From Deltaproteobacteria bacterium (GTDB taxonomy: Bacteria > Desulfobacterota > Binatia > Binatales > Binataceae): a stretch of DNA of 64,000 nt. Location of the stretch: contig JAJXZF010000040.1 in assembly GCA_021780225.1 (NCBI GenBank), positions 30,919 to 94,918 of the forward strand, read 5' to 3'. A program made the translations under genes and the position numbers. Within the stretch, counting starts at the first letter, position 1; the number at the start of each line of letters is the position of its first letter. The notes beneath the pieces are model-generated. The model had not been told where the DNA came from and ran no database searches. It saw nothing but the letters and a program-made list of their open reading frames with translations. Below, piece after piece: positions 12,748-61,949 of the stretch.

Positions 12748-12785
12748 GGCGCCGCGCCCGGCGATGCGAACGATAGCGGCGCGCC

Positions 12786-30617: not shown

Positions 30618-31112
30618 CTATGAATCGTCTCTGTAGACGGCGTATCCATTCTTCTGCGCCCAATCCTCAGAGAACCCCACGTGCGAAATGGCGTTTCTAC
30701 TCGCGTCCAATTGGCGTTTCGCTTCCTTGACCACGATTTCAGGCTGCAATTTGTAAATTACCTTGCACTTCATTTGATCGCTCGCATAGAATACCGCGAA
30801 ATAAATATAACGATTTCGCGTGATGCGATTGAGCGACTCGTTACGTTTGTTTGTGGGCTCTTTAAACATCCGATCAAGTTGGCCTGTTCCGCCTTCCTTG
30901 CACGAAAGATATTCGTATTTCTCTTCCGGGTTATCCAAGGCATGCGCATCGGCATCACGTTTTGAGTGAATGAGCTCGTGCCCAAGGATATCAGCAATAA
31001 TCATTTCTTTCACTAACCCGGGTTGGAGCAGATTCTCAATACCAATCGACCGTGCAATCTTTGCCGCCCTAATCACAAGATCAATGATCTTGCGGTAAAT
31101 ATCGCGCGCCAT
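30618..31112 (-). CDS. putative type II restriction endonuclease, PvuII-like
   Basis: 164 aa. The segment KRDADAHALDNPEEKYEYLSCK resembles the R.PvuII catalytic segment (GNDAVDNAGQEYELK). Its start overlaps the MTase stop. Confidence 0.45.
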   Translation of the reverse strand: MARDIYRKIIDLVIRAAKIARSIGIENLLQPGLVKEMIIADILGHELIHSKRDADAHALDNPEEKYEYLSCKEGGTGQLDRMFKEPTNKRNESLNRITRNRYIYFAVFYASDQMKCKVIYKLQPEIVVKEAKRQLDASRNAISHVGFSEDWAQKNGYAVYRDDS

Positions 31113-31113
31113 G

Positions 31114-31926
31114 TCAGAATAGCCTTGCGGCTAGATCGTTATTTACTTTCTTCAACCGACTATTTACGGTCGCGGCGAATTCACGATTCCATTCAAATGC
31201 GATGAAGTGTCTGTTGAGCTCTCTGCAAACAGCAGGACAGGTTCCAACACCAGCGAACGGATCTAGAACAAGATCACCTTCGATCGAACTCGCTTGGAGA
31301 AGCCTGTCGATGAGTTTAGCTGGTTTTTGGATCGTGTTGAGAAATTCCCTACTAACAAGCTCTTTTGATCTATACGTGAGTTGTTTGATATCGCCCCATA
31401 CGTCCCCTGGATTCTTGCCTTCGTGGTGAAATTTCGTTCTACCAAATTTCCCATTCAAGACAGAGGGAACTCTCTCGCATCGGAGGCGATGTTCCAACTC
31501 CACAAGTTGTGGAACTCGGATCGCATCCAGATTAAAGACTCTAGGCTTGTCACCCTTAATAAAATAACAGATGATATCATAATTATTTGTGTAATTAATT
31601 CTGCCTTGAGCGAGCCTGCTTGGCTGATACCAGACGATCTTGGACCGGAGGTTCAGATAGGGTCGATAATCTATGAAATCGATACAGTCCGGCTTCCCAA
31701 AAAGATATAGTGCTCCTCCTTCTTTCAATTTCCGCGCAAAAATCTGGATTAATTCGAGATTGAACTCCTGAATACTCGGAATCCGATCCCACCTATTGGC
31801 CGTCACACCATACGGACCGTCGCAAATAACCAGATCAACCGTTCCGTCTTCAATCTTTGGGAACATCTCGAAGGCGTCAGCACAGTAGATGCGGTCAATT
31901 TCTAGCATTGCTCGAACACTTCCCAC
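31114..31926 (-). CDS. DNA methyltransferase, beta-class (N4-cytosine or N6-adenine)
   Basis: Motif IV-like LVICDGPYG near the N-terminus and motif I LDPFAGVGT near the C-terminus (beta permutation); 270 aa. Confidence 0.8.
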   Translation of the reverse strand: MGSVRAMLEIDRIYCADAFEMFPKIEDGTVDLVICDGPYGVTANRWDRIPSIQEFNLELIQIFARKLKEGGALYLFGKPDCIDFIDYRPYLNLRSKIVWYQPSRLAQGRINYTNNYDIICYFIKGDKPRVFNLDAIRVPQLVELEHRLRCERVPSVLNGKFGRTKFHHEGKNPGDVWGDIKQLTYRSKELVSREFLNTIQKPAKLIDRLLQASSIEGDLVLDPFAGVGTCPAVCRELNRHFIAFEWNREFAATVNSRLKKVNNDLAARLF

Positions 31927-33636: not shown

Positions 33637-34088
33637 CGCGGATCCTCCTGGACGCCAGCCGCCGGACGCGCCGCGGCGTCCGTATGCCGTCGCGTCACGC
33701 TTTCGCCAACCGCCATCGCCGTGGCGCTCGGGCTGGCCGATTAAATATAGCAGACGGCCGCGCGGCGGCCATCCAGACCCTCCAATGGCTCAATTCGGCC
33801 CGCTCGACGGTCGTCTCAAGGTTCGGCGCTAATGCCTCATTCTGAGATATTCCAGTCTATTCTTGCCAATTAGAAGCAAAATAACCAACGTATCCATACG
33901 GCATGAAATCACAAAAAATTACAAAAAATTCAGTGTCAAATGACTTGCGTACATGTTTTCTTGATGCTAATAGAGCTTTAGCAGTATCTATGGCGGTCAG
34001 ACGTGCCTGAAAGGGCAGATCCGCAACGCCTGGTGGTTGGACCAGTTTTTGATATGCGAATCGCTCGTTCAGGAAGGAGCGGATAGCG

Positions 34089-34535
34089 ATGGATCAGGCG
34101 AAGCACGAAATGGACGCGATGGACTCGATCGGGTTTGCCGACATCATTCTTCCCAGCCAGTTTTACGGCGCGATGGGCGGGGGCGCTTTGTGCAGCGAAC
34201 AACGCCTGATGCTCGCGGTGCTGGTCGATGCGATCAACATCTTGCAGGGATGGAACCGCACGGGTAGCGCGCGCAAGCGCCGGGCGTTCGCCGAAGCCGG
34301 ACAATGGGTCGGCGCCCGGGGCACGTCTTATCCGTTTTCGTTCGACAGCGTTTGCGACGCGCTCGGAATCGATTCCGAAGTATTGCGCGGCCGGCTTGGA
34401 CCGCTGGCGATCGGTCACGGCGGAATCGACCGGATGGGTGGACGGCTGCGCCTGAAGGAATCCAGCCGTGCGCAGCATATGACGGCGAATCGCATCCGTC
34501 GGCGCAAACGGGACCGGATGGTCGCGGCGCGCTGA
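34089..34535 (+). CDS. hypothetical protein (148 aa), first gene of a three-gene accessory module
   Basis: GGAAGGAG RBS 7 nt before the ATG. High GC3. Basic C-terminal tail (RIRRRKRDR). No recognisable domain. Confidence 0.6.
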   Translation: MDQAKHEMDAMDSIGFADIILPSQFYGAMGGGALCSEQRLMLAVLVDAINILQGWNRTGSARKRRAFAEAGQWVGARGTSYPFSFDSVCDALGIDSEVLRGRLGPLAIGHGGIDRMGGRLRLKESSRAQHMTANRIRRRKRDRMVAAR

Positions 34536-34568
34536 TTCGCTTGCGCGCCCGGCGCCCGCCGGGCGCGA

Positions 34569-35198
34569 TTGACTGCTTCGCGCCGGCCTCCGTATGATCG
34601 CTATGCTCTGTTCCGGAGGCATCTTCCAGTGCGAATGCTGTTACCGCCGATCGTGCGCCGCCGCGAGATGGATAAAGGCTTGGTGGAGTTCTTCCACAGC
34701 CATCGGAAAAGCGCGTTTCGACGTGCGATAGCGGATTTTTGCGTATTTTACCACCTACGCCGTCCACGAATCGAATGGTACGAGTACATAGACTGGGGTA
34801 AAACGGCCGGACGCACGTTTGAAGACGGCCGCATCCACATGGTCCATCCTGAAAATTGGAAACGGGGCCGCGTCTATAATTCCGAACGGATGTGGGTTCA
34901 GACCGTCTATCACGAACTGGCGCACTATCTCTTCTGGACCGACGCCGAGCGCAAAGCCGAAGCGTTTACGCGGCGGATGGTGCGAGGATTGCGCCGTCCG
35001 GCGCGGCGGATAGCCAAGCCGGCGGCCGCGCAAAAGACCAGGCGCATCTCCGCTGGCCGGCGGAATGCCGCCGCCACCCGCGTCCGATCGGCCGGCCGCC
35101 GGCGCGCCGGACGCGAACGGATCGCGCCGACTCGCGCCGCCCAGGTGCGCGCCGAAGCGCGTGGTGCGCGGCGCGCCACGCGCCGGGCTGTTCGGTAG
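34569..35198 (+). CDS. HExxH-motif protein (putative zinc metallopeptidase-like) with Arg/Ala-rich tail
   Basis: VYHELAHYLFW zincin-like motif and a roughly 80-residue Arg/Ala-rich low-complexity C-terminus. Start uncertain (ATG 34635 or 34668 also possible). Confidence 0.5.
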   Translation: MTASRRPPYDRYALFRRHLPVRMLLPPIVRRREMDKGLVEFFHSHRKSAFRRAIADFCVFYHLRRPRIEWYEYIDWGKTAGRTFEDGRIHMVHPENWKRGRVYNSERMWVQTVYHELAHYLFWTDAERKAEAFTRRMVRGLRRPARRIAKPAAAQKTRRISAGRRNAAATRVRSAGRRRAGRERIAPTRAAQVRAEARGARRATRRAVR

Positions 35199-35204
35199 GC
35201 GCGG

Positions 35205-35774
35205 GTGCGCGCTGGATTATCGGCGATGTCGCAAAAACCGACCGTGGAAAATCGCTGGTGGGTCGAAACCAGTTTCAAAAAGCCTCGCCAGGCGCGCGCG
35301 GAAACCGAACTTCCCCAGTTGCCGATCGCGATGAGCTTTTACGCCGTCGCCAAGGATTACGATCAGGATCGCGCGAAGGACGACCTCACCGACAATAATC
35401 TTCGTATCGCGCGCGCCGCCGATCCGCCGGCCGGCGATTGGGCATACGTGGCGATGACCGACGAGCATTTTCCGCCCCGGATGGTCAAACGGATCAAGGA
35501 AGAGTTTCGCATCCCGCACGAGGCGCGCGGCGTGATCCTCGACCATGGCCGGCTCTTACGCCTGCTGATTTGCGGTCCAGAGCTCGAAGATTGGATGATC
35601 GACGTGACGCTGAGCGACGAACCGTCGGTTGACGTTTATGTCTGGAACGTGATGCATCGCGAGCGGCTTTTCCGGCGCGCCGAAGACGCGCTCAAGCAGG
35701 CGCGGCGATGGGCGATCAATCTGTTGCGGAATCCGCCGCCGCGCGACGAACCGTTCCGCGGCGCGCTCCTCTAG
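35205..35774 (+). CDS. hypothetical protein (about 180 aa)
   Basis: Co-oriented with and 6 nt after the previous ORF. GC3-rich. No recognisable domain. Confidence 0.5.
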   Translation: MRAGLSAMSQKPTVENRWWVETSFKKPRQARAETELPQLPIAMSFYAVAKDYDQDRAKDDLTDNNLRIARAADPPAGDWAYVAMTDEHFPPRMVKRIKEEFRIPHEARGVILDHGRLLRLLICGPELEDWMIDVTLSDEPSVDVYVWNVMHRERLFRRAEDALKQARRWAINLLRNPPPRDEPFRGALL

Positions 35775-35827
35775 AAAACGCCGAAATGTTCTAATGTCCT
35801 GCTGACGCGGCCGCAAAGCAATGGACT

Positions 35828-36253
35828 TCAAGACGGCCGAATGGTCAGGACCGGCCGCGGCGATTCGCGGATGACCCGCTCGGCGACGCTGCCCAGCACC
35901 AAGCGTTTTAGACCCCTGCGGCCATGTGTGGCCATCATGACGACGTCGATCGCCGGACTCGCCGCGGCGCTCAGAATTTCCATCGCCGGGTCGCCCGAAG
36001 AGACCGCGACTTCATACAGCGCGGGCTCTTTGAGCCGTTCCGCCGCCAGACGCTCAAGACGCTGGCGCGCCTCGTGCTCCGGCGGACTGAATTGCTCCAA
36101 CGGCACCGGCTCGCCAAACGATTCGCGCGGCACCGGCACGACGTAAAGCAAATGAAGCTTGCCGTGATTCGCGCGGGCCAGTTCGGCCGCGGCGTCGAGT
36201 ACGCTCAGCGATACCGGATCGAAATCGACAGGACACAAGATATTCTGGAACAT
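35828..36253 (-). CDS. universal stress protein UspA family
   Basis: 141 aa with the ATP-binding motif MATHGRRGLKRLVLGSVAERV (G-2x-G-9x-GS). Confidence 0.85.
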   Translation of the reverse strand: MFQNILCPVDFDPVSLSVLDAAAELARANHGKLHLLYVVPVPRESFGEPVPLEQFSPPEHEARQRLERLAAERLKEPALYEVAVSSGDPAMEILSAAASPAIDVVMMATHGRRGLKRLVLGSVAERVIRESPRPVLTIRPS

Positions 36254-36421
36254 CGCCGGCTTCCGCGATAATGATCGCGCCTCTATGATTCAACATCACC
36301 GTCTGCGCGCAGAAATGGAAGCAAAAGCGGCCTGTGCTCCGGCGCGATTCGCGTTTCGGCGAAACGCTTGTCCAGAGGATGCTGTCACGACGCCGGCGCC
36401 TGGCGACGACGGCCGGACTTC

Positions 36422-36859
36422 ATGTCGCGAAAGGTTCCGGCGGTTCGTTTGAAGCAGCACGTGGTAAAGCGCGGGCGGGTGCTGGCCGCATCTTTGGTCG
36501 CAATCGCCACACTATCGTCTTCCGCAAAGAGCGCAGCCGCTCCGGCCGCTCTCTACCAACAGCAGTGCGCGCGATGCCACGGCGCGGACGGCGCCGCCGA
36601 AAGCCGTTCAGACTCCGGCAGCGCGTTGCCATCGCATAGTTTGCGCGATTGCTCCTGGATGGACCTGATGTCGAACGCGACGCTGTTTCTCGCGATCAAA
36701 AATGGCGGCGGCGCAATCGGCATTAGCCCCTCGATGCCCGCGTTCAGCGGCCATCTGACAAACGACGAAATGGCGGGATTGGTAAGCTATATCCGGGGTT
36801 TTTGCGCCGAACCTGAGCCACGGACCGACTCGATTATCATCCCCTCGGCGCGCCGCTGA
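36422..36859 (+). CDS. c-type cytochrome (class I, monoheme)
   Basis: Signal peptide, CARCHG heme-binding motif and a downstream Met ligand region. Confidence 0.7.
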   Translation: MSRKVPAVRLKQHVVKRGRVLAASLVAIATLSSSAKSAAAPAALYQQQCARCHGADGAAESRSDSGSALPSHSLRDCSWMDLMSNATLFLAIKNGGGAIGISPSMPAFSGHLTNDEMAGLVSYIRGFCAEPEPRTDSIIIPSARR

Positions 36860-37274
36860 GCGCCAATCGTACGATCCAGGCTGGCTCGACGCCGGGATCG
36901 GCTGGGCATCAGCCTCGGATACCGGTCCAAATTTATCCAAATCAGCCTGAAATAATTAAGAACCTGGATCGTCTATATTTCGAGGGCATTACGAAGCGTC
37001 TCTCAACCATGGTAGAGATCGTCCGACTTTCGCACTCATGGAGGTTGCGGCGCAAAACAGCATCAAAGCTTGAAATTGCAATAACATCAGTCTATAAAAT
37101 CTAGATAACAGCTGATTTTGAATCGTTTGACAAAATTTCGGATGTTTCGCCATGATTCGTGAGTTGTGGATAAAATCTGATGAAATGAGCTAGATTTCCT
37201 AGCAAATTTCGTTACATGGCTGCTAAAATGAGTGTTGATCACCATTCCTTAGGTTGAGCCAAAGAGGAGATAAC

Positions 37275-37526
37275 GTGGAAGAGAATCGGACAAAGAAACA
37301 CGGGGCGCATGGTTTGCCCCCAAAGGTCCTCACCGTTCGTGAGTTGTCGGAATATCTTCGGGTTCATCCGACGACCGTCTATCGGCTGCTCCGCGCGCGG
37401 CAGCTGCCGGGATTTCGAGTCGGCAGCGAATGGCGTTTCAGCATCGATATGATCGAGCGCTGGCGTTCCGAGGAAGAACAGTCGTCGGTCGAGATCAAGG
37501 CGCGGCGCGGCAAGCGAGCCGGCTGA
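37275..37526 (+). CDS. excisionase-family helix-turn-helix DNA-binding protein
   Basis: GTG 37275, 6 nt after AGGAG. HTH core LTVRELSEYLRVHPTTVYRLLRARQLPGFRVGSEWRF, MerR/excisionase-type. Paralog of the 60086-60292 gene. Confidence 0.7.
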   Translation: MEENRTKKHGAHGLPPKVLTVRELSEYLRVHPTTVYRLLRARQLPGFRVGSEWRFSIDMIERWRSEEEQSSVEIKARRGKRAG

Positions 37527-37780
37527 TCGCACGACAGGCCGCGGAATCCGCTTCCGTACCGTTTCAAAACGGCGCGATTGGCGCGGATGATCGGTTCAAG
37601 ATCCGAAAGTTTCGAACGTTGGTTTTATTTACCTTGATTTGATAGCCCCACGTGCGTCGTCGGCGCACCGTGTTCAAGTTAACCCAGTTGGGCTTAGCGA
37701 TCCGCAGGTCTGTTCGGATTCATCGGACGCGATCCACGAGATATGCGTCGGCGCATGCGTGCGTCTAGGACTTTTACGAG

Positions 37781-39430
37781 TTGCCGGATGATCATAAGTT
37801 GATCAAAACTGGCAACGCGATGATGTCCTCACCCGAAGCCGAACGCTTCCGCACCCTCTACGAGCTCGGCTGCGCCTTTTCGGCAAAGACGGAACTCGCC
37901 GAACTTGTTCCTTACGTGATCGAGAAATGCCGCGAGGCTTTGAATGCCGAAGCCGCTTCGGTCCTGATGCTCGATCGGGACCGCAATGAACTTTACTTTC
38001 CGTACGTGTCGGACTCGAACCAGGGCGTGGCCGACGTGTTGCGCAGCCTGCGGCTGCCGGCCGACAAGGGCATCGCCGGCGCGGCGTTGAACCATAATCA
38101 AACCATCGTCGTGAATGACGCTCAGAATGACGCGCGGCTTTACCGCGCGATCGATCGCCAGACCGGCGCCGTGACGCGCAGCCTTGTCGCCACGCCGCTG
38201 CAAGGCCGCAATGGCGTGATCGGCGTGCTTGAAATTCTCAATCGGCGCGGAAACGGGACCTTCGACAACAGCGATATCGCATTTCTCGAGGCGGTTTCGG
38301 AAAGCATCGCGATCGCGATCGAAAACGCCAGCCTCTACGCGCAGCTTCGCGACTCCGAAGCGATCCTGCGCACTCAAGTCGGCGCTTTGCGCCGCGATCT
38401 CGCCAAGAACGACCTCTTTACGGAAATCATCGGCTCGAGCGCGCCGATGTTTGAAGTATTCCAGCTCATGGAAGCGGCGGCCACGTCTTCGATCGCCGTA
38501 ATGATTCAGGGCGATACGGGAACCGGAAAGGAATTGGTCGCGCGCGGAATCCATCGCGCCAGCGCGCGGTGCGAGGCGCCGTTCGTCGCGGTCAATTGCG
38601 CGGCGATGCCGGAGACGCTGCTCGAAAGCGAATTGTTCGGGCATCGCAAAGGAGCCTTTACCGGCGCGATCCGGGACAACCCCGGCGTCTTTCGAGCCGC
38701 GTCGGGAGGCGTGGTTTTTCTCGATGAAGTCGCGGAAATGCCAGTTCGGATGCAGGCCAAGCTGCTGCGGGTTCTCGAACAGGAGGAAGTGATTCCGGTC
38801 GGCGAAACCTTTCCGGTGCGCGTCGATGTGAGAATCGTCTCGGCCACCAATCGCGACTTGAAGACGGAGATCGCCGCGGGCGCATTTCGGGAAGATCTCT
38901 ACTACCGGCTTGCGGCCTTCCCGATCCGGCTGCCTCCGCTGCGCGCCCGGCGGGAAGATATCGAATCGCTCGCGAGCCGTTTCCTGACCGTCTCCGCCGA
39001 ACGCCATCACAAGCGTCTGGCCGGTTTCGATCCCGCGGTGCTCGCGATCTTTTCCAACTACGATTGGCCGGGCAATGTGCGGCAGTTGCGCAATGAAATC
39101 GATCGCGCCGTCGCGATGGCGCGCGAGGGCGACACTATCGGCGTGCCTCAGCTCTCCCAGGATTTGCGAGCGGCTGCAAGCCATTCCGCGCCGATCAAAG
39201 CCGACGCCGCGACTGCGTCCGCGCCGGTCACAGCCGCCTCCGCCGCCGACGGCGTTGAGGGTCACGAGAGCCACACTCGTTCGCTACGGCAGGCGCGCGC
39301 GGAATTCGAAGCTGCTTTCATCAATGAGGCTCTGGCGCGCCATCACGGCAACGTCTCGCGCGCGGCGCAGGCGCTGGGGATTTCGCGCCCCGCGCTGCAA
39401 GAGAAGATAAAAACCTACCATCTCCGATAA
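37781..39430 (+). CDS. sigma-54-dependent transcriptional activator with N-terminal GAF domain (Fis-type C-terminal HTH)
   Basis: GAF domain, AAA+ domain with Walker A GDTGTGKE and GAFTGA motif, and C-terminal HTH. Alternative start ATG 37820. Confidence 0.88.
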   Translation: MPDDHKLIKTGNAMMSSPEAERFRTLYELGCAFSAKTELAELVPYVIEKCREALNAEAASVLMLDRDRNELYFPYVSDSNQGVADVLRSLRLPADKGIAGAALNHNQTIVVNDAQNDARLYRAIDRQTGAVTRSLVATPLQGRNGVIGVLEILNRRGNGTFDNSDIAFLEAVSESIAIAIENASLYAQLRDSEAILRTQVGALRRDLAKNDLFTEIIGSSAPMFEVFQLMEAAATSSIAVMIQGDTGTGKELVARGIHRASARCEAPFVAVNCAAMPETLLESELFGHRKGAFTGAIRDNPGVFRAASGGVVFLDEVAEMPVRMQAKLLRVLEQEEVIPVGETFPVRVDVRIVSATNRDLKTEIAAGAFREDLYYRLAAFPIRLPPLRARREDIESLASRFLTVSAERHHKRLAGFDPAVLAIFSNYDWPGNVRQLRNEIDRAVAMAREGDTIGVPQLSQDLRAAASHSAPIKADAATASAPVTAASAADGVEGHESHTRSLRQARAEFEAAFINEALARHHGNVSRAAQALGISRPALQEKIKTYHLR

Positions 39431-39462
39431 GTTTTCCGGCGGCGATCCGACGGAAAACTTTA
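39431..39462 (+). terminator. hairpin immediately after the sigma-54 activator stop
   Basis: GTTTTCCG-12 nt-CGGAAAAC followed by TTTACG. Confidence 0.4.
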
Positions 39463-39607
39463 CGCCAAGGCGATCGACGCCAATCGATTGGCGCTCGAAT
39501 GAACCAAACTATTCAGTCTTTTCAAACACTTAGAAAATAAACGCGGCCATCAGGCCGATGGCGCCCTAATTGCTCAATAAGTTTTCCCAGCAGCGGGGAG
39601 AAAACCA

Positions 39608-39916
39608 ATGACAATTCGGCGCGCCAGATTAGAACATCGGGGACCTGCACACGCGACTGGCCGACTATATCGTTCATCGCGGCGCCAGACCACGGACGTC
39701 GGCAACGCGATTTTGCGGATCGCCCGGCTTCGCTACGAAATTTTCCGGGAGCGGTTTGGCCGCGATCCTGAACCCGACGAACCCTTGTTTTTCGATGTCT
39801 CTCATGGCCGGCCAGTAATCGCGAATGAGACCGAAATGTTCCGACAGGTATCGGACGCGGCTTCTGCGACCCGCGCGGATTTCCTCTCGGTCGCCAAATT
39901 TCTTGGGCTCGGATAA
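39608..39916 (+). CDS. hypothetical small protein (102 aa), weak call
   Basis: GGGAGA 6 nt before the ATG. Non-repetitive composition. Located inside a palindrome-rich non-coding stretch. Confidence 0.3.
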   Translation: MTIRRARLEHRGPAHATGRLYRSSRRQTTDVGNAILRIARLRYEIFRERFGRDPEPDEPLFFDVSHGRPVIANETEMFRQVSDAASATRADFLSVAKFLGLG

Positions 39917-40101
39917 GGCGTCAGAGCGGCGGAATGGGTGAAGAGGGGGGCTCTGACGCGCCCATCCGGCTTTGAAGCCGGCGATAAACCTCCGGCGACG
40001 CCCGAAGCCTGCGTCCAAAACAGATAAAAACCAGACAAATAATTCGCCAAAGCCGGTCGGCGCGCCATTGACGGAATTACCCTGCCAGGTCCGTCGTGGC
40101 T

Positions 40102-40119
40102 GCCGGCCGGCGTCTTTTT
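40102..40119 (+). terminator. GC palindrome plus T-run (terminator-like) in the 39.9-40.3 kb non-coding stretch
   Basis: GCCGGCCGGC followed by GTCTTTTTA. Confidence 0.35.
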
Positions 40120-40335
40120 AATCCGTCCGGCTATTTGATATTGCGCGCCGGCCTCCGCGCTTGTCGGCGATTGGCCTAATCGCCTATGTAAAGGGATGCG
40201 CCGCGCGACACATACGCCGGGGCGCGAGTCCCAGGATCGCAACGCCTTCAATGGCGCCGCGCCGGAATATCGGCGACCCGCGCGAAGCCATCCGGTCGCG
40301 CGCGCAAATCATTCAACTCGGAGGAACTCAGGACA

Positions 40336-41100
40336 ATGGCAGGAATACTCGACGGCAAAGTGGCGATCATCACGGGCGCGGCATCGGGAATCGGACGCGC
40401 GACTTCGCTGATTTTCGCGCGCGAAGGAGCAAAGCTGCTGCTCGCCGACCTGCAGGAAGAGGGCGGCGCCGAAACGCTCAAAATGGTCAAGGCGGCCGGC
40501 GGCGACGCGACCTTCTTCAAGGTCGATGTCTCGAAATCGGCCGAAACCGAGGCGATGGTGGCAAAAGCGGTCGCGACCTACGGCAAGCTCGATTGCGCGT
40601 TCAACAACGCCGGTATCGACGGCAGGGGCGGCCGCGTGCACGAGTGCACCGAGGAGAACTGGAACCGCGTGATGTCGATCAATCTGACCGGCGTATGGCT
40701 CTGCATGAAGGCGGAGATCGCGCAGATGCTGAAGCAGGGCAAAGGCGGCGCGATCGTGAACACCTCTTCGGACGCGGGCCTGATTGGCGTCGCCGGATTG
40801 CCGGCCTATGTCGCGGCCAAGCACGGCGTCGCCGGACTGACCAAGGCGGCCGCGATGGAGTACGGACGGCACAATATCCGCGTCAATGCGGTCTGTCCGG
40901 GGCCGATCCGCACGCCGATGCTGGGCCGGTTGCTGAACGCGCGACCCGAGGCCGAATCCAAAATGGCGCGGTCGGAGCCGCTCAAGCGGCTCGGCGAGCC
41001 GTCGGAGATCGGCGAGGCGGTGGCGTGGCTCTGCTCGGACCGCGCCTCGTATGTGCACGGCTTGCCGATGCCGGTGGACGGCGGCTTCATGGCCCAGTAA
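40336..41100 (+). CDS. short-chain dehydrogenase/reductase (SDR), glucose-1-dehydrogenase/FabG-like
   Basis: TGAASGIG NAD-binding motif, NNAG, and the catalytic S...YVAAK triad; 254 aa. Confidence 0.9.
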   Translation: MAGILDGKVAIITGAASGIGRATSLIFAREGAKLLLADLQEEGGAETLKMVKAAGGDATFFKVDVSKSAETEAMVAKAVATYGKLDCAFNNAGIDGRGGRVHECTEENWNRVMSINLTGVWLCMKAEIAQMLKQGKGGAIVNTSSDAGLIGVAGLPAYVAAKHGVAGLTKAAAMEYGRHNIRVNAVCPGPIRTPMLGRLLNARPEAESKMARSEPLKRLGEPSEIGEAVAWLCSDRASYVHGLPMPVDGGFMAQ

Positions 41101-41233
41101 CGACGGGTTCGATACGTTCAAATCGCCTATCCGCCGTCCGCAAGGTCAACCATATGTTGACAGAAGCGGCGGATTTGATAGGATTTTGCCCGGATAACGA
41201 ATCCGCTACGCCCGTAGGCGGGCATTATACGAG

Positions 41234-41269
41234 AGGCCCTTCCGCGTAATGTGGGAGGGCCTTTTCTTT
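41234..41269 (+). terminator. rho-independent terminator (stem with one G-U pair, then TTTCTTT)
   Basis: AGGCCCTTCC-gcgtaatgt-GGGAGGGCCT-TTTCTTT. The NYN gene RBS follows directly. Confidence 0.55.
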
Positions 41270-41282
41270 ATGGAGTCAAGAT

Positions 41283-41864
41283 GTGGCCAGGATCGCGATT
41301 TTGATCGATGGCGGATGCCTGCGAACGCGCACCAAGCAGGCAAACCTTCAGTACGACCCGAATCATATCGAAGCCGTCGCGCTCAAATGCCCGCTGACTG
41401 ACGAAAATCTACTGCGTATTCTTTATTATGATTGCGCTCCATACGGAGGCAGCGTGAAACTGCCCGTGTCTGGAAAACCGCATACGTTTCCCGGCTCCGA
41501 CGCTTGGTTGAGGGAATTGGCGCGCAAAGATCTTTTCGCCGTGCGCCGAGGCGTGCTCAAATTCCGCGGCTTCGTGCCGAACAAGATACCACTTGCTTCG
41601 ACCCATTTGACCGATGCGGATTTCAAGCCCTCGTTTGAACAAAAAGGCGTCGATATGAGGATAGGTTTGGACATCGCGCAATACGCCAACGCGAAATCAG
41701 TTGAGCGAATTGTGCTGTTAACCGAAGACACTGATTGTGTCCCAGCGATGAAACACGCGCGTAAGGCGGGCTTGCAAGTCGTGTTGATATCGCTGCCGAA
41801 TTCTCATCTCGCGCCGGAACTCAGAGAGCACAGCGATTTCTTGCGATCCGTGGCATGGCCGTAA
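41283..41864 (+). CDS. NYN-domain (LabA-like PIN-fold) protein
   Basis: IAILIDGGCL N-terminus with a conserved Asp, and the GVDMRIGLDI and LLTEDTDCVP acidic blocks typical of NYN/LabA. Confidence 0.75.
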   Translation: MARIAILIDGGCLRTRTKQANLQYDPNHIEAVALKCPLTDENLLRILYYDCAPYGGSVKLPVSGKPHTFPGSDAWLRELARKDLFAVRRGVLKFRGFVPNKIPLASTHLTDADFKPSFEQKGVDMRIGLDIAQYANAKSVERIVLLTEDTDCVPAMKHARKAGLQVVLISLPNSHLAPELREHSDFLRSVAWP

Positions 41865-41967
41865 GGAAAGGCCCCCGGCCGCTCGTCCATGTTTCCGAAA
41901 AACGACGGGGGCGGAGACCATCAAGGTCGCCGCCCCCGTTTGCGTCATTGCGATTTAATCGCGAACG

Positions 41968-43095
41968 TCAGCCGAGCAGGGATTTTGCGACCGTCTCGCG
42001 ATGCACCGGCGCGTTGCCCAAGTTCGCCTCGCCGGCGAGCGCCCGGCGATGGTACAGGTGCATGTCGTGCTCCCAGGTGAAGCCGATGCCGCCGTGGACC
42101 TGAATCGCCTCCGAAGTGACGTTCTTGGCCATGTCCGACGCATACGCCTTGGCCATCGGCACGGCCGCCGCCGCTTCGGCCACGCGCTCGTCAACCGTCC
42201 AGCAGGCGTAGTAGGTCAGCGAGCGAGCGTTCTCGACCGCGACCATCATATCGACGCACTTGTGCTTGACGGCCTGAAAGGAGCCGATCGGCTTGCCGAA
42301 CTGGACGCGGGTCTTGGCGTAATCGACCGCGATATCGAGCGCCTTCTGCGCCGTACCGACCATCTCGGCCGCGAGTCCGGCCGTCGCGATATCGAGCGTG
42401 CGGCGCAGAATCGGCCATCCGCCGTCGGCCCCGCCGATCACTTCGCTGGCCGCGACGTCATCGAACTTCACGTGGCACATCCGGCGCGTCATATCGACGG
42501 TTTTTAGCTGCGTAACCGTGACGCCTTTTTCCTTCGCCGGAACGCAGAGCAGCGTGATTCCGTTTTCGCCCGCGCCGCCAGTGCGCACCGCGACGATAAT
42601 CGCGTCGGCGACGTGCGCGTCAGGCACGAAGAATTTCTCGCCCGTGATCGTGTAGCCGGAGCCTTTTTTCGCCGCCTTGAGCTCGATTCCACCAGCGTCG
42701 AAACGGCCCGACGCTTCCGCGATCGCGACCGTCGCGATCAATTTGCCCGCCGCGATCTTCGGCAGCAGGTCTTTCTTCTGCGCCTCCGATCCGCCTTCCA
42801 TGATCGCCGGCCCGCCGAGCATCGTCGCGGCGAAGAACGGTCCCGGCACGATCGCCTTGCCGGCCTCTTCCGCAATCACGGTAAGGTCGAGGAACGAACC
42901 GCCCTGCCCGCCGTAATTCTCCGGGATAATCAGTCCGGGCCATCCGAGTCCGACCAGTTTTTCCCAAAACGCCCCGTCATGCGCGGTCTCATGCGCCATC
43001 ATCTGACGCACGAACTTGGTGGAACAGTTGTCGGTCAGGAACCGCTTGGCGGCGTCCCGCAGCATCTCCTGCTCTTCTGAAAACCCGAAGTCCAA
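41968..43095 (-). CDS. acyl-CoA dehydrogenase family protein
   Basis: 375 aa with ACAD N-terminal, middle and C-terminal domain signatures (QVHGGIGFTWE). Confidence 0.88.
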   Translation of the reverse strand: MDFGFSEEQEMLRDAAKRFLTDNCSTKFVRQMMAHETAHDGAFWEKLVGLGWPGLIIPENYGGQGGSFLDLTVIAEEAGKAIVPGPFFAATMLGGPAIMEGGSEAQKKDLLPKIAAGKLIATVAIAEASGRFDAGGIELKAAKKGSGYTITGEKFFVPDAHVADAIIVAVRTGGAGENGITLLCVPAKEKGVTVTQLKTVDMTRRMCHVKFDDVAASEVIGGADGGWPILRRTLDIATAGLAAEMVGTAQKALDIAVDYAKTRVQFGKPIGSFQAVKHKCVDMMVAVENARSLTYYACWTVDERVAEAAAAVPMAKAYASDMAKNVTSEAIQVHGGIGFTWEHDMHLYHRRALAGEANLGNAPVHRETVAKSLLG

Positions 43096-52084: not shown

Positions 52085-53442
52085 GTGCCAGAATCCCGCC
52101 GCGACGAGCAGAAACTCTGGCTGATCCTCTTCCAGATCAGGGGCGTACGGTCGCGTTTGAATATGCTGGCCGCCCAGCAGTGGTTGTTTACGACGTTCGC
52201 GCTGTTAATCGGCGGCGCGGCGTTGATTCTGATCGCTGCCGCCAAGTTAGGCCCATTTGGCTTTCTGAGCGTTTCAGCAATCTTACTTATCGTCGCCGCG
52301 AGCGGAATCTTCACAGCGGCGCGGCGCGGATGGGCTGCGCGAGTCGATGTCGCAAGCGCGGCCGGATTGGCCGATCGGCGCGCCGGCCTGAAAGGCCGCC
52401 TGACGACCGTTCTCGCCCTTTCCGATTCGGCTAAACAAGCTCAATTGTGGCCATTTCTGGTTGAAGATACTTATGCGATGCGCGACGATTTCGAACCGCG
52501 GCGAATTGAGCCACGTTTGGTTTCGCGCTCGGTAGGCGCTCTGCTGGCCGCTTTTTTCCTCGCCCTGCTGGCTTTGCCCGATCTGAATCGCGGCGCCGCG
52601 GCGCGCCAAATCGCGTCCGCCGGCGCCGGAGGCGGCCAAGCCGCCGCCGATTTGAGCCAACTCGAGATCCAGCCCGCCGACCCCGCGTTGCAGCCCAACG
52701 CGCAAATTTACGCCGACCCGGAAACGCTCCGCCGCCTGCAACGGAAACTCGCGGCCGAGGGCGCCTCGCATCAGCACAAAGGACTTGGCGGGATGATGGA
52801 CAAGGCGCGGCAGTTCGCCGACGCCTTTCAACATAAATTGACCGGACGCAATCCTGAATCCGGCGCTCCGCTCAATCTCCGCCTGACCGACCACAATGCG
52901 GGCCGCATACCGGACGAACGCGGCGGCGGCGATCGATCGCGGCAAATGGCGCAAGGCTCCCGCAACGCGAATCCGCATCGCGGCGCGAACGGCTCAGCCT
53001 CCAATCGCCATGGCGCGAATCGGCCGGGCGCGCCGCCGGCTGCGCTTTCGGGCTCGCAAGCCGATCAAATGGCGAAGCGCGAGCCGGGCGCAGCTTCCCA
53101 ATCGAATCAGAGTTCGAACTCCAATCAGGCGGGCTCCAACAACGACGCAAATCCTCCGGAGCAGGATGCGGCGAATGATTTTGGCGGCGGCGCCAATCAC
53201 GGAATCGGCGCGGACCCTGAGCATCTGTTCGGCCCGCCTTCCGCGCAACCGTTCGGCAGCGACAGCTTCAAAATCGCGATCGACGCGGAACCTTCGGACG
53301 AAGCCAGCGCGCCCGGCAGCCCGGCCTATCTGCCGCCCAAAGTGCGCGTGCCGCTCAATCCGAATCAGTTGCCTGATGAGCCGATCGCCCGCGCCGCCGT
53401 GCCGGCCGGCGATCAAACGATAATCAAGCGAGTATTCGACCG

Positions 53443-53446
<4 letters not shown>
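52085..53446 (+). CDS. membrane protein with long Gly/Asn/Ser/Ala-rich low-complexity region; first gene of the MoxR operon
   Basis: Two TM helices near the N-terminus, then about 250 residues of low-complexity sequence. Stop overlaps the moxR ATG. Alternative start ATG 52163. Confidence 0.55.
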
Positions 53447-54489
<1,043 letters not shown>

Positions 54490-54504
54490 TCCGGTCGTCT
54501 AGCC

Positions 54505-55410
54505 ATGCTCGCCGCACGCGCGTTCGAGCCCGAATTTCTCCGCCGACTCGACGGCCTGATGATTCAGGCGCGGCGCAGCCGGGCGCCGCGCGCCGGCCGG
54601 CGCGTGCTGGGACGCAACCTGGGCGCTGGAATCGAGCTGGAGGATTTCCGGGAATACGCGCCCGGCGACGATTTGCGTTTCCTCGACTGGAACGCGCTCG
54701 CCCGCCTTGACGATCTGAAAATCCGCACCTTTCGCCCCGAACGGCAAATCGAAGTGACGATCATGGCCGACGCGAGCGCCTCGATGAGCCGGCCGGCCGG
54801 CGACGACAAGCTCGGCTTCGCGCTGACGCTCGCGGCGGGGCTGGCGTATATCGGGATGAGCGAGAACGATCCCGTCCGCATCGCGGTTTTTTCCGGCCAC
54901 GGGCCATCCGCCCGTTTTGAAGCAACGCCTTTTTACCGCCGCCGCGAATCCTACGCGGAATTCCGTCCTTTCTTCGCCACGGTGCGGAGCCTCGGCGAAA
55001 CCCGGCTGAGCGAGGCGGCCGGCCAACTCCTGGGTCAGCGCCGCGCGCCCGGAGTCGCAATCATCATTTCCGATTTTCTGGTCGGGCCGGGCGACTACGA
55101 AACCGCCTTCAACAATCTGCTCGGGGCGGGCTTCGAGGCCAAGGCCGTCCACGTGATGGGCGATCGCGAGAGCGCGGTGGACTACCCGCCCGGCAACTAT
55201 CGGGTGCGCGATTGCGAAACCGGCGTCGTGCGCGACGTGAGCTTCGGCCCGCGCGAAATGGAGGCGTGCCGGCGGCGGATCGCGGCGCACGCCGACGCGC
55301 TGGCGGATTTCTGCAAGCGGCGCGGCGTGATGTACGCGCGGGCCTTCGGCGCGTCAAAGCTCGACGAGATCGTCGTCAAGGAATTTCCGCGGCTGGGAGT
55401 GATCGCCTGA
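54505..55410 (+). CDS. DUF58-domain protein (vWA-like, MoxR partner)
   Basis: RFLDWNALARLD..., typical DUF58 block. The standard partner of MoxR. Confidence 0.85.
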   Translation: MLAARAFEPEFLRRLDGLMIQARRSRAPRAGRRVLGRNLGAGIELEDFREYAPGDDLRFLDWNALARLDDLKIRTFRPERQIEVTIMADASASMSRPAGDDKLGFALTLAAGLAYIGMSENDPVRIAVFSGHGPSARFEATPFYRRRESYAEFRPFFATVRSLGETRLSEAAGQLLGQRRAPGVAIIISDFLVGPGDYETAFNNLLGAGFEAKAVHVMGDRESAVDYPPGNYRVRDCETGVVRDVSFGPREMEACRRRIAAHADALADFCKRRGVMYARAFGASKLDEIVVKEFPRLGVIA

Positions 55411-55412
55411 CG

Positions 55413-57287
55413 ATGGGCCTGCTGAAACCCGCCAATCTGCTTTACGCGCTCAGTATCGCCGCGCTGATCGCAATCTATCTGCGCGCGCGTTCGCGGCCGA
55501 CGATCGAAGTTTCGAGCCTGATAATTTTCGAGGAAGCGCCCGCGCCGGTCGCCAACAGCCGGGTGCTGCGTCTCGACTTGCCGTTTTGGCTCGAGGCGCT
55601 GGCGCTGGCCGCGCTCTCGCTGGCGATCGCCGGTCTTTATTTCCGGGTTTACGGCGTCGCCGGCGGCCATCGCACCCACGCGCTGGTTTTCGATTTGGGC
55701 GCCGCGATGGGCGCGCAGGGGGACGGCGGCACGGCGCTCGACGACGCCCGCGCGGCCGCGCGCCGCGTGATCTCCGCGGCGCCTGAGGGCGATTCGTTCG
55801 CAATCATCACCTACGCGCTCGCGGCCGCGGCGGCGGGCGCGCCCACTTCCGACCGCGCCGAATTAAACCGCGCTCTCGACCATCTCAAGCCAATGGACGT
55901 GGCCGCGAATCCGGCCGCGCTGCGGGCGGCGCTGGTTGACGCGCGCGCGGCCGATACGATCGACCTTTTCGCCACTGCGCCGGCGCCGCCGGTAATCGTC
56001 GAAGACGCCGGCCTGTCCGGACCGCCGCGGTTCCATCGCGCGGGGGTCGCCGCGGCGAATCTGGCGATCGTCTCGCTCGATCCGGGCGTGCCGCGTTCGA
56101 GCCTCGGCCGAGCGGTAATTCGCAACTTCTCCTACCATCCGCAGACCTGCGAGCTTGAAATCACCGCCGGCGGGCGCGCCGTATTCCATTCGAGCTTTAT
56201 CGTCGAACCGCGCGCCGAAGTGGTCGCGCCATTCGGGCCGGTGCATGACGGCGGGCTGGTCGAGGCGCGGATTCTGACCCGCGACGGACTGGCGGCCGAC
56301 AACGTCCGCTATGCGCTCGCGCCCTCGATCGCGCAGATGCACGCTTTGGTGTTGTCGCCCGACCCGGGAGTGCGCGACGATCTCGCGCGCATCCTGCTGG
56401 CGATAAATCCGAACTTCCTGGTCGCCACGGCCGATCCGAACCTCGCCAACTCCTTTGACCGCCGGCAGCATTACGCGCTTGCGATGCTGCACGATTGCGG
56501 CGACGCCGGCGTCGCCGCCGATGCGCGGCTGTACATTTTTCCCGAACCGGCGCTGATCGGCGACCAGCGGCCCTCGATCCTTCCGGTGGCCGGCTCGGTC
56601 GCGACCGCGGAGATGAGGCGGCGCGCGGGCGCTGGCGAATTGGCGACTCCGGTGCTGCTCGGCCCGGCGCGAATCGTAAGGCTGCCCGGATGGATGGAGG
56701 CGACGTCCGAGGGCGGCGGCGCCGGCGAGCGCGGCGATTTCGCGCTGACCGCCGTCGGGCGCGTGCGCAGCGGCAAGATTGGCATGATCGCGTTCGACGT
56801 GCGCGGCCATCTGCTGCTCGATCCCGACCGGCTGGACGCGTTGCTCGCGGCCATCGGCACGATTCGGCGCCTGATCGCGCCGGAGGATGTGATGATCGAG
56901 CCGACCGGCGCGATCGTCAGGGCGCCGGTATTCGCGCGCGCCGCGCTGGCCGCGCCCGACGGAAGCCGTCGCACGCTGACGCCGGATCGTTGGGGCCAAG
57001 TGCGCTTCCAGCCGCTGCTCGCGGGGCCCTACACCCTTGCCGCAGGCGGCAAAACGATCGCCATTTACGCCAATTACTACGACGCCGGCGAATCGGATCT
57101 GAGCGGCGCGGCGCCGCCAACATCCGTATCCAATCGGCCAAACGTACTTCCGGCGGTGGCGAACGAGGGACATTTCCAGGTGCGGACGATCGGATTCATG
57201 CTCGCCGCGATCGCGCTGCTGCTCTTCCTGCTCGAATCGATCGTGCTGACGCGGCGGGCCGCGCGGTGGAGCGCACGTCATGTTTGA
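55413..57287 (+). CDS. BatA-like membrane protein (aerotolerance-regulator N-terminal domain)
   Basis: Start ATG 55413 (MGLLKPANLLYALSIAALIAIYLRARSRP), characteristic BatA_N double-TM, and a C-terminal TM anchor. The track ORF has a spurious 67-aa extension. Confidence 0.75.
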   Translation: MGLLKPANLLYALSIAALIAIYLRARSRPTIEVSSLIIFEEAPAPVANSRVLRLDLPFWLEALALAALSLAIAGLYFRVYGVAGGHRTHALVFDLGAAMGAQGDGGTALDDARAAARRVISAAPEGDSFAIITYALAAAAAGAPTSDRAELNRALDHLKPMDVAANPAALRAALVDARAADTIDLFATAPAPPVIVEDAGLSGPPRFHRAGVAAANLAIVSLDPGVPRSSLGRAVIRNFSYHPQTCELEITAGGRAVFHSSFIVEPRAEVVAPFGPVHDGGLVEARILTRDGLAADNVRYALAPSIAQMHALVLSPDPGVRDDLARILLAINPNFLVATADPNLANSFDRRQHYALAMLHDCGDAGVAADARLYIFPEPALIGDQRPSILPVAGSVATAEMRRRAGAGELATPVLLGPARIVRLPGWMEATSEGGGAGERGDFALTAVGRVRSGKIGMIAFDVRGHLLLDPDRLDALLAAIGTIRRLIAPEDVMIEPTGAIVRAPVFARAALAAPDGSRRTLTPDRWGQVRFQPLLAGPYTLAAGGKTIAIYANYYDAGESDLSGAAPPTSVSNRPNVLPAVANEGHFQVRTIGFMLAAIALLLFLLESIVLTRRAARWSARHV

Positions 57288-59865: not shown

Positions 59866-60085
59866 GGCGTTAAATCAATTATAGCGGCGCCGAACCCGTT
59901 GGGCTGGCGCTCAAAGCATCGCCCCAGCGCCGGAAGAAACGGCATGGCGCCTGGATGGATGAAACGCCGGATGGCCTCGCTTCGGGCGGGAATGGACTGT
60001 GCGCCGCCCGAAGTTTGCCGTCGCGAATATCGCTATGGTTGACGTGTTCCGCAGGAGGGATCCACGCCGAAACGGACGCGCGGCT

Positions 60086-60292
60086 TCACCCGAGATTGCG
60101 AAGCTCTTCGAGTTGCGCAGCGCCCTGATGCATCCGCCACTCGTCGATCGCCTCGACGTTAAAGCGCCAGTCGCTGCCAATCTTGAAGCCGGGCAATTGC
60201 CCCTTCTTCAGCAACCGGTAGATGGTCGAGCGATGAACGCGCAGATAATCGGAAAGCTCGCTGACAGTCAGGACTTTTGCATCGGCCAACAT
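60086..60292 (-). CDS. excisionase-family helix-turn-helix DNA-binding protein (paralog of 37275-37526)
   Basis: Start ATG 60292. LTVSELSDYLRVHRSTIYRLLKKGQLPGFKIGSDWRF is more than 60% identical to the other copy. The track ORF carries a junk N-terminal extension. Confidence 0.65.
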   Translation of the reverse strand: MLADAKVLTVSELSDYLRVHRSTIYRLLKKGQLPGFKIGSDWRFNVEAIDEWRMHQGAAQLEELRNLG

Positions 60293-60829
60293 TGCAGATT
60301 TCTTCCTTTTCTCGCGCCCTTGCCGCGCGCCATCCGCCTCAGCACTCTGATGCGGGGCGGGGTTTGGACGCGGGACGCTGTTTTGCCTCGAACTTCTCAT
60401 CGTAAGATCATTCCGCCTTGATCGGTCTTGTCGTCGCGACAGTCGCGCCACGCTGACAGCTCAAGTTAAAAACCTTACCGACCTCTGAACCGCGCTTTTA
60501 GCGTTCTGACGACGCGGATATAGACAATCTGATTAGAATAATTGCAGGCCATGATCAAGCTGTCGTTTAATGATTCTACAGATTTTTTCATTCGTTTTAT
60601 AGCTACAAACGACGCTTTAGCTGCACATTCAAACTTCCCCGCCTTGACCGGGAAAGCATGCGCTCGATTCAATGGCTTAATCGAAAGGCTTTCGCCTTAT
60701 AAGACGTGCATTCTCCGATTCGGTTACAGAAATCTTTGCGATCGATCTTGCGAGACAACGACCGTCGATAAGAGCGCAACCGCGCTTGCGGCGTGACGCG
60801 CGTTGCCGCGACAATGGCGGGAGTTCGCG

Positions 60830-61432
60830 ATGCCGATACCGTACGGAACGTATCGTTATGAAATCTGGCGGACGGGCGCGTTGACCGCCGTCGAAGAAAC
60901 CTTCGTCGCGCCCGGGCTGTTGCGCGGCGCGCGCCGCTCGCCCGAGGGCGGCAATCTGCACGCGGTCGAGGCGGCGCTGGCGGCGGACGGCGCAATCATG
61001 CGGATCGTGCTGCGTTATCAGCGCGGCATGTTCAAGCGCGACGCCGTGTACGACGCCGTGGAGGAGACTCTGCGGGGCAGCGTGAGCGCGATGGCCGGGC
61101 GCAACGAAGTCATCGCCAAGCTCGGCCGTTTTCGCGAGCTCGATGCGGACTTGGTGCTATGCCGGGCGCTGATCATCGCGCGGACGCGCGCGCGGGGTCA
61201 ACGTCGTTTCACCGGAAGGGTGGCGGTCATCGATCCGAATACGCTGGTCGCTGCATCTTACAAGCAAACCTACAGCCAGGTGGACGAAACGGGCTTGCGC
61301 TGGCGTCGCGAGGCGCGGATGGGCGAAAGCGAAACGATCGAACTTGAGGCCGACGGCCGGATCGCTCGAATTCGCGATGATTGGGGAGGCGAAGCCCGGC
61401 TTGCGGAATTCGCCCCCGCCGAGCCGCGTTGA
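60830..61432 (+). CDS. hypothetical protein (200 aa)
   Basis: GGGAG RBS 6 nt before ATG 60830. No recognisable domain. Confidence 0.5.
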   Translation: MPIPYGTYRYEIWRTGALTAVEETFVAPGLLRGARRSPEGGNLHAVEAALAADGAIMRIVLRYQRGMFKRDAVYDAVEETLRGSVSAMAGRNEVIAKLGRFRELDADLVLCRALIIARTRARGQRRFTGRVAVIDPNTLVAASYKQTYSQVDETGLRWRREARMGESETIELEADGRIARIRDDWGGEARLAEFAPAEPR

Positions 61433-61435
61433 CCC

Positions 61436-61783: not shown

Positions 61784-61949
61784 CCGAGTCGATCCCCCTT
61801 TTCGCGACTGAGTGGAAATGATGCCGAGAATGGATGTGTGGAGCAATCGAAATCGGCCGCCTGCCAAACAACGCTCAAGCCAGCCGATGCGGACCTGTGT
61901 TATGCTGCGTGATAATACTCTTTAACGAGGATTTTTGGGGGTCGTCCGA

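Follow-up and report, generated by a model that had tools for sequence, protein, structure and literature searches.

Two small genes in a 64-kb stretch of a Binataceae contig (the window: 64,000 nucleotides of JAJXZF010000040.1) encode stand-alone winged-helix proteins of the excisionase family, here called HTH1 and HTH2. The reading that we favour, with moderate confidence, is that they are paralogous mini-regulators resembling BldC of Streptomyces, each encoded behind an AT-rich control region, and that HTH1 stands beside an ordinary sigma-54 module made up of an enhancer-binding protein (EBP) and a small gene, orf102. HTH1 and HTH2 would then serve as small transcription or architectural factors, not as working excisionases, a function assigned by analogy. 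The two genes and their upstream regions are:

37275-37526 (+), HTH1, 83-aa stand-alone excisionase-family winged-helix protein, Pfam HTH_17
60086-60292 (-), HTH2, 68-aa paralog of HTH1, Pfam HTH_17, start taken from ortholog comparison
36860-37274, intergenic region upstream of HTH1, 415 nt, with an AT-rich core at ~36901-37274
60293-60802, region upstream of HTH2, with an AT-rich core at 60452-60720, shared with the divergent gene 60803-61432

Both proteins matched Pfam HTH_17 above its cut-off of 27 bits (HTH1 1.8e-14, 54.1 bits; HTH2 7.7e-17, 61.7 bits) and also TIGR01764, 'excisionase family DNA-binding protein' (46.1 and 57.3 bits, respectively; cut-off 28.8). HTH_17 was the sole domain detected in either, with no coiled coil or effector domain. 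Aligned by BLASTP the two share 48% identity across 80 aa, and the identity of more than 60% that a preliminary description of this DNA had reported for the DNA-binding region was borne out, 29 of 46 residues (63%) being identical over the core VLTV...W. HTH1 starts at a GTG codon preceded by GAGGAG at 37264-37269. Comparison with orthologs placed the HTH2 start at the ATG at 60292, so the upstream gap is 60293-60802, common to HTH2 and the divergent gene; the leader previously drawn at 60452-60830 does contain an AT-rich stretch, but its extent has to be corrected to this gap. Orthologs of HTH2 were found at 100% (locus L067), 90% (L072) and 75-78% identity (L027 and L028). On one contig of a related genome (JAJZAI010000005.1), an HTH1 98% identical to that of the window (locus L001) lies ~22.6 kb from the HTH2 of L067. 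HTH1 and HTH2 are separate chromosomal genes, paralogs of one HTH_17/TIGR01764 family. In its surroundings, HTH2 stands between a VWA-containing operon (run from 53380) and the divergent gene 60803-61432, which is followed by a bactofilin gene (61436-61867). The operon gene at 57280-59865 encodes an 861-aa product with VWA and GATase1-like domains, and the whole arrangement (53380-61867) is kept in L067 and L072.

An AlphaFold model of HTH1, built on the family alignment, had a core predicted local distance difference test score (pLDDT) of 86-87 and the topology b1-a1-a2-b2-b3-a3 (E18-20, H21-28, H32-40, E47-49, E52-56, H57-77), that of a winged helix-turn-helix. The solved structures that Foldseek matched best were the BldC-DNA complexes 6ama and 6amk (target-normalised TM-score 0.7-0.8, root-mean-square deviation 1.2-1.8 A, 28-31% identity, probability 1.0), followed by RacA, Pukovnik Xis, RdfS and TraN, and BldC was also the top, though weak, match when the family profile was searched against the PDB. 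BldC is a 68-residue stand-alone MerR-like protein that binds 9-bp direct repeats (AATTNNNNC) head to tail, with its wing reading an AT-rich, narrowed minor groove (PMC5859096). For a protein acting in the same way, AT-rich target DNA would therefore fit. Like BldC, HTH1 and HTH2 are chromosomally encoded, stand-alone MerR/excisionase-like winged-helix proteins of ~70 residues, with neither a dimerisation nor an effector domain. Unlike BldC, which is one developmental regulator in an actinomycete, they belong to a much divided family in another phylum.

The family is expanded in Binatia. There were 181 homologs of HTH1, the named ones from 'Candidatus Binataceae' metagenome-assembled genomes (MAGs), and a scan of GTDB species-representative genomes gave 328 confirmed stretches with family members. 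Eighty of the 328 were retrieved as loci, and all 80 came from Binatia-type MAGs. The family forms six large groups plus singletons, that is, at least 6-7 paralog groups with several copies per genome; since several groups are present within one MAG, they are true paralogs. Each group has its own neighbours, mostly housekeeping genes, among them aroB (upstream of two groups), lspA and ileS, and further a phosphotriesterase, an MMPL transporter and a TetR regulator. A phage search returned no close relative, and plasmid matches reached at most 44% identity. The family genes behave as core chromosomal genes.

The long AT-rich stretch ahead of each HTH gene, already pointed out in the preliminary description, is a marked feature of the window. 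The 200-nt GC content falls below 0.47 in just four stretches of it (mean 0.634), and two of the four are the leaders (36901-37360 and 60401-60780). In the HTH1 leader, GC ranges from 0.33 to 0.53 per 100-nt bin, compared with 0.63 for the window; in the HTH2 leader it is 0.47 across 60401-60780, with a lowest 200-nt value of 0.415. The leaders had also been described as free of open reading frames (ORFs), which is incorrect, as ORFs of 52-84 aa are present in both. These are not genes, since their protein identity to relatives (50-58%) is lower than the DNA identity (72-75%), and small leader-encoded proteins were rejected as not conserved at the protein level. Both leaders diverge fast, with many indels: the HTH1 leader is 72% identical to that of L001, where the protein is 98% identical, and the HTH2 leader 75% identical to that of L067, where the protein is 100% identical. 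AT-rich upstream DNA is found family-wide: in 78% of 77 loci, the -300 to -50 region ranks among the lowest 5% by GC within the 14-kb locus. Set against the other gaps of their loci, those upstream of HTH genes stand out by greater length (median 372 vs 236 nt, P=5e-8) and higher AT content (GC 0.535 vs 0.597, P=3e-18), with the reservation that common ancestry and rough gene calls inflate these across-locus P-values.

The leaders do not have their sequence in common. The duplicated leader-plus-HTH unit had been proposed to be a repeated regulatory cassette, and this proposal was not upheld: no shared sequence, motif, repeat array or RNA structure was found, and MAFFT and blastn (word size 7) detected no similarity between the two leaders. 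Motifs common to the leaders of different paralogs were sought as k-mers (k=6-8) over six orthogroups, and these were not above shuffles. Unlike BldC targets, the HTH leaders contained no detected AATTNNNNC-type phased repeats; chains at 9-11-bp spacing were no more frequent than in shuffles (P=0.58-0.99), and an apparent TTTCGG/TTTCGC/ATTCGT triplet at 37136-37161, with 9-10-bp spacing, gave chain statistics no better than shuffled sequence. What the two units share is an architecture, long AT-rich upstream DNA, and not an element.

Several of these observations weigh against a BldC-like role. Since the leaders show neither phased BldC-type arrays nor a common motif, auto-regulation is conjecture. 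The Foldseek E-values to BldC are ~1e-2, despite the probability of 1.0, and the sequence similarity is weak (family profile against the PDB: 6amk E=0.019, 6ama E=0.091). The inflation of the P-values given above counts on the same side. More distant HTH1-like proteins (54-67% identity) are encoded in variable regions rich in small hypothetical genes, one of them with a large serine recombinase and DUF2924 and one with a transposase, which suggests a possible mobile-element origin of the HTH1 lineage. These distant genes are sometimes tandem duplicates.

As a separate observation, paired HTH1-like HTH_17 genes, 61-76% identical to HTH1, occur in two arrangements: in L082 (2-2818) the pair is in tandem, directly downstream of an unrelated EBP, and in L081 (2358-6681) it is convergent and has a large serine recombinase with DUF2924 ~2 kb away.

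The module downstream of HTH1 comprises the following features, among which the EBP, orf102 and a short-chain dehydrogenase/reductase (SDR) gene are the protein-coding ones:

37527-37819, HTH1-EBP intergenic region, 293 nt, with a promoter-like box (TTGCCG at 37781-37786, 16 nt, TCAAAA at 37803-37808)
37820-39430 (+), sigma-54 EBP with GAF, AAA+ (GAFTGA), AAA_lid_14 and HTH_8
39463-39493, half-sites that read like an upstream activating sequence (UAS), including the perfect palindrome CGCCAATCGATTGGCG (39478-39493)
39520-39533 (+), putative site TTTCAAACACTTAG resembling that of integration host factor (IHF), between UAS and promoter
39559-39574 (+), sigma-54 (-24/-12) promoter TGGCGCCCTAATTGCT, best consensus match in the window, 1 mismatch
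39608-39916 (+), orf102, small conserved hypothetical protein, likely sigma-54/EBP target
39918-39981 (+), two hairpins past orf102, GCGTCAGAGC...GCTCTGACGC and CCGGCTTTGAAGCCGG, possible terminators as read from the sequence
40336-41100 (+), SDR oxidoreductase (adh_short_C2 7.8e-72), last gene of the conserved HTH1-EBP-orf102-SDR block

The EBP matched the Pfam families Sigma54_activat (8.5e-68) and HTH_8 (3.3e-12), plus GAF and AAA_lid_14, and GAFTGA was read in its translation. Its start was assigned to the ATG at 37820 and not to the TTG at 37781, because L001 carries a frame-breaking 1-nt deletion in the putative extension. Since none of the named NCBIfam equivalogs was matched at its cut-off (NorR 352 vs 476, NifA 346 vs 529, FhlA 287 vs 830), it is not an equivalog of NifA, NorR, FhlA or any other named activator. 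The box ahead of the gene, TTGC[CG]G-N16-T[AC]NNA[AG], can be aligned between orthologs, and its end is ~11 nt from the ATG, which points to a separate, nearly leaderless EBP transcript. The gene itself also looks nearly leaderless, with no evident Shine-Dalgarno sequence, and orthologs show the same layout.

The control elements past the EBP are conserved. The palindrome CGCCAATCGATTGGCG is one of two GCCAA-N(2-8)-TTGGC sites in the window, and orthologs have analogous TTGGCR/YGCCAA dyads (TTGGCA-N5-YGCCAA) just past the EBP stop codon. At the same relative position as the IHF-like site, most orthologous loci appear to have a WWTCAA-N4-TTA-like stretch. The promoter TGGCGCCCTAATTGCT lies between the EBP stop codon and orf102, and GGC[AG][CT]-N5-TTGC is found 41-50 nt ahead of the orf102 start in all 12 orthologous loci (background 4.1e-5 per nt per strand, or ~0.005 expected per 120 nt). 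A -24/-12 element, for which the preliminary description had proposed a search, is present downstream of the EBP. Upstream of the HTH genes such elements are not enriched: there were 3 matches in 84 upstream regions, compared with 1.6 expected, and one of the three was within coding sequence. A CTGGT...GC box conserved in L005-L013 was rejected as a sigma-54 site, its spacing being GG-N9-GC, not N10. A 14-mer of the orf102 promoter, GGCGCCCTAATTGC, recurs exactly at 12740-12753 (-), at a convergent-gene junction with no gene downstream in that orientation; this copy may be due to chance or may be an antisense promoter.

By tblastn, orf102 is 52-88% identical in 10 orthologous loci. Its family (32 homologs, all hypothetical) gave no Pfam, NCBIfam, PHROG or PADLOC match. 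More distant homologs (~50% identity) always lie directly downstream of a GAF-sigma-54-HTH_8 EBP, behind TGGCAT-N5-TTGC. The EBPs of these loci, where intact, are 57-59% identical over their full length, and the loci are without an HTH_17 gene. The EBP and orf102 therefore form a conserved unit, to which HTH1 is a later, clade-specific neighbour. One such locus, L168 (3960-5255), has an orf102 homolog with a perfect TGGCAT-N5-TTGC, and its upstream EBP consists of the pieces 1-108 and 416-536, without AAA+; this is a decayed or split activator. The SDR gene is syntenic in nine loci, at 85-98% identity, and as it lies 420 nt from orf102, it is probably a separate transcription unit.

In the proposed mechanism, the EBP would sense a ligand through its GAF domain and activate orf102, the module running from the GAF-sensor EBP through the upstream palindromes, the IHF-like site and the -24/-12 promoter to orf102. 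On the sequence arrangement, orf102 is the likely target of the EBP. The EBP resembles those of NtrC/NifA/NorR-type sigma-54 modules in having a GAF domain, a GAFTGA-bearing AAA+ domain and HTH_8, and the dyad UAS, the IHF-like site and TGGCGC-N5-TTGCT before the adjacent target, all conserved, are as in standard modules. Unlike such modules, the target is a lone small protein without an assigned function, and one clade has an HTH_17 gene as a constant upstream neighbour. Even with HTH1 set aside, the sigma-54 circuitry is complete; the locus is otherwise ordinary, and nothing about it suggests a new mechanism.

The position of HTH1 beside the EBP is itself well conserved. The preliminary description had placed the HTH gene directly upstream of a GAF EBP. 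The EBP does follow HTH1, but a gap of 293 nt (170-452 nt in orthologs) lies between them. The adjacency holds in relatives: an EBP ortholog, 62-88% identical, follows HTH1 in all 12 orthologs with downstream sequence (HTH1 72-98% identical, species-representative genomes). Further downstream, orf102 follows in 10 of the 10 HTH1-EBP loci that reach far enough, and the SDR gene in nine. In contrast, the 3 kb upstream of HTH1 comprise six unrelated contexts among the orthologous loci; conserved gene order therefore ends immediately before the HTH1 leader, with HTH1 remaining attached to the EBP block. The pairing is also non-standard, as had been suggested. No HTH_17 gene was found within 3.5 kb in any of 80 unrelated EBP loci used as background (the metagenome AAA+ matches listed, all non-orthologous, 31-52% identity), and the literature searched contained no paper combining 'excisionase family' with sigma-54 terms. 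Co-occurrence of the HTH family with EBPs was seen for the HTH1 group but for none of the other paralog groups: one of the at least 6-7 groups adjoins an EBP, and other EBP matches are 2.4-5.5 kb off, in the group-E loci L054, L064 and L076. HTH1 is a clade-specific (Binataceae clade), syntenically fixed neighbour of the EBP.

Whether this neighbourhood reflects a partnership is a different matter. HTH1 and the EBP could form a functional pair whose adjacency is kept by selection: HTH1 might control the EBP promoter, or be an IHF-like architectural helper at the orf102 enhancer, or the EBP might bind sites flanking HTH1. We consider this possible but unlikely. The adjacency in all 12 testable loci despite six upstream contexts speaks for it, as does its absence from the 80 unrelated EBP loci. 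HTH1 is flanked by further copies of the UAS 9-mer CGCCAATCG (at 36861 and 37575); this word has nine copies in the window (3.8 expected), and four of the nine (36861, 37575, 39478 and 39485) are non-coding and lie within 2.7 kb. The HTH1-EBP gap of L001 and L002 contains a dyad, TTGGCGAT-N7-8-ATCGCCA, and in L082 a second, different EBP lies beside tandem HTH_17 genes. However, the sharing of UAS words with the HTH1 flanks has a window P of ~0.035, fails in L001 and L002 and gives a pooled P of 0.04, and so stands as an unconfirmed lead. The EBP orthologs next in closeness (57-59% identity) retain orf102 and the sigma-54 promoter yet have no HTH_17 neighbour, and an EBP is missing from the vicinity of six of the seven more distant HTH1-like genes, L082, where a different EBP lies upstream of the tandem pair, being the exception. 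HTH1 and the EBP also lie 170-452 nt from each other, a promoter-like box precedes the EBP itself, and at such divergence synteny can last without a functional link. Judged by synteny alone, HTH1 may modulate the EBP locus.

A broader proposal appears more doubtful still, namely that the seven or more paralogs form a BldC-like, nucleoid-associated or global layer acting on AT-rich hubs, including their own upstream regions, with HTH1 as a dedicated architectural co-factor of the sigma-54 module (EBP-orf102). If true, an excisionase-fold protein and a sigma-54 activator would be partners, a combination not described before.

It is very improbable that the HTH genes encode excisionases (recombination directionality factors), or are remnants of such genes, and mark the edges of integrated elements, with the AT-rich DNA as an att site or junction scar. 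HTH1 and HTH2 do share HTH_17/TIGR01764, the fold and small size with lambda and Pukovnik Xis, RdfS and TorI; Pukovnik Xis (4j2n) and RdfS (8dgl) were among the top fold matches of the HTH1 model, and besides the family names the PHROG matches (phrog_66 and phrog_1840) belong to the category of integration and excision. The point at which synteny is lost lies exactly upstream of HTH1, distant relatives lie near the L081 recombinase or a transposase, and GC at third codon positions is lower in the HTH1 block (0.59-0.74) than in core genes (~0.80-0.85). But unlike those excisionases, HTH1 and HTH2 have no nearby integrase or recombinase: no recombinase domain was found among the neighbours scanned, ~3.5 kb per side (34089-43095 for HTH1, 57280-61867 for HTH2). 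Their positions among housekeeping and regulatory genes are stable across species-representative loci, other paralog groups sit between housekeeping genes with stable synteny, and HTH1 orthologs are retained in at least 13 such loci at 72-98% identity. There is no phage match, and plasmid matches are distant only; the HTH1-EBP-orf102-SDR block is conserved rather than variable, and no long direct repeats were found in the 1.1-1.2 kb around each gene.

A defence role was likewise considered. HTH1 and HTH2 resemble MAD1, the HTH component of the methylation-associated defence system (MADS), which was their best NCBIfam and PADLOC match by E-value (NCBIfam 1.5e-14 to 3e-17; PADLOC 5.6e-9 to 3.4e-10). 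Membership of MADS was rejected, as the MAD1 model gave 53.9 and 62.5 bits, short of its curated threshold of 80, and no mad2-mad8 genes adjoin. Unlike in MADS, the single methyltransferase near the locus is 5.3 kb away, in a separate two-gene island. The neighbour genes of HTH1 and HTH2 had no PADLOC matches. A defence-system or phage origin was also rejected, PADLOC, PHROGs, and phage and plasmid searches having given nothing specific.

To return to the preferred reading of BldC-like paralogs behind AT-rich control regions, the leaders contain the following candidate elements:

37164-37175 (+), invariant box TTGTGGATA(A/G)A, containing TGTGGATAA, the reverse complement of the DnaA-box consensus
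37189-37203, small hairpin, GCTAGATTTCCTAGC then AAATTTCGTT, between the invariant TTGTGGATAAA box and the putative -10
37200-37229 (+), candidate sigma-70 promoter of HTH1, TAGCAA-N18-TAAAAT
60578-60573 (-), candidate -10 of HTH2, TAGAAT, conserved in the HTH2 group

Each HTH gene probably has its own sigma-70-type promoter, to judge from these elements. The -10-like TAAAAT of HTH1 (37224-37229) is kept as TAAAAT or TAAAGT in four of five close orthologs (alignment A3); a consensus scanner proposes other HTH1 promoters, at 37127-37156 and 37147-37176. If the TAGAAT at 60578-60573 is the HTH2 promoter, the 5' untranslated region (UTR) would be ~270 nt, and a CTGTA[AG]AATC block of the HTH2 leader is kept in L027 and L028. 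The box TTGTGGATA(A/G)A is unchanged in the window and L001-L004, in an alignment with a mean column identity of 66%, and is absent from L005-L013; more distant HTH1 orthologs instead have in common GAGTATC...GGGCTGGT. TGTGGATAA is the sole perfect match within the window, and a replication origin was rejected, given one perfect box and matches with at most one mismatch at chance level (3 observed, 3.5 expected). That transcripts of the long leaders act as cis-regulatory RNAs (riboswitch, attenuator or small RNA) on the HTH genes is hardly credible: the possible long 5' UTR of HTH2 and the hairpin at 37189-37203, whose pairing is kept by two-sided changes at two of five pairs (five sequences) and which the scanner calls terminator-like, would suit it, but no Rfam family matched anywhere in the window, folding z-scores were insignificant (HTH1 leader -0.31, HTH2 leader -0.75), alifold gave a consensus energy of only -4.2 kcal/mol, to which covariation contributed unfavourably (positive term), the leader sequences change quickly and are rich in indels, and the likely HTH1 promoter leaves a 5' UTR of ~40 nt.

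Binatia, a phylum without cultured members, occur worldwide in soils and sediments, and we know of no regulator characterised in them. The window offers a concrete candidate regulatory unit, with a GAF-sensing EBP, an enhancer, a -24/-12 promoter and one small target gene, and it reveals a family, expanded in this lineage, of stand-alone DNA-binding proteins with the excisionase fold whose behaviour is that of core chromosomal regulators, not of mobile-element genes. If the HTH proteins act like BldC, the reach of the BldC family would extend to another phylum, and automatic 'excisionase' annotations in Binatia genomes would be misleading.

Two further regions upstream of the HTH1 locus stand out. 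At 30618-31926 (-) there is an AT-rich (GC ~0.46) two-gene island in a genome of 63% GC. One gene (31114-31926) encodes an N6/N4 DNA methyltransferase (Pfam 8e-33; PADLOC type II methyltransferase 1e-40), the other an adjoining 164-aa protein without a family match; the two genes probably represent a type II restriction-modification pair gained by horizontal transfer. Non-coding DNA that is likewise AT-rich, the third such stretch (33741-34100), lies ahead of the co-oriented genes orf148, orf209a and orf189 (region 33741-35774), for which no Pfam, NCBIfam, PHROG or PADLOC family was found; orf209a has an HExxH motif and a faint SprT-like match. orf189 is shared with L001-L003, orf148 and orf209a with L001-L002 only; L036 has further homologs of orf209a and orf189, 6.5 kb from a different HTH paralog.

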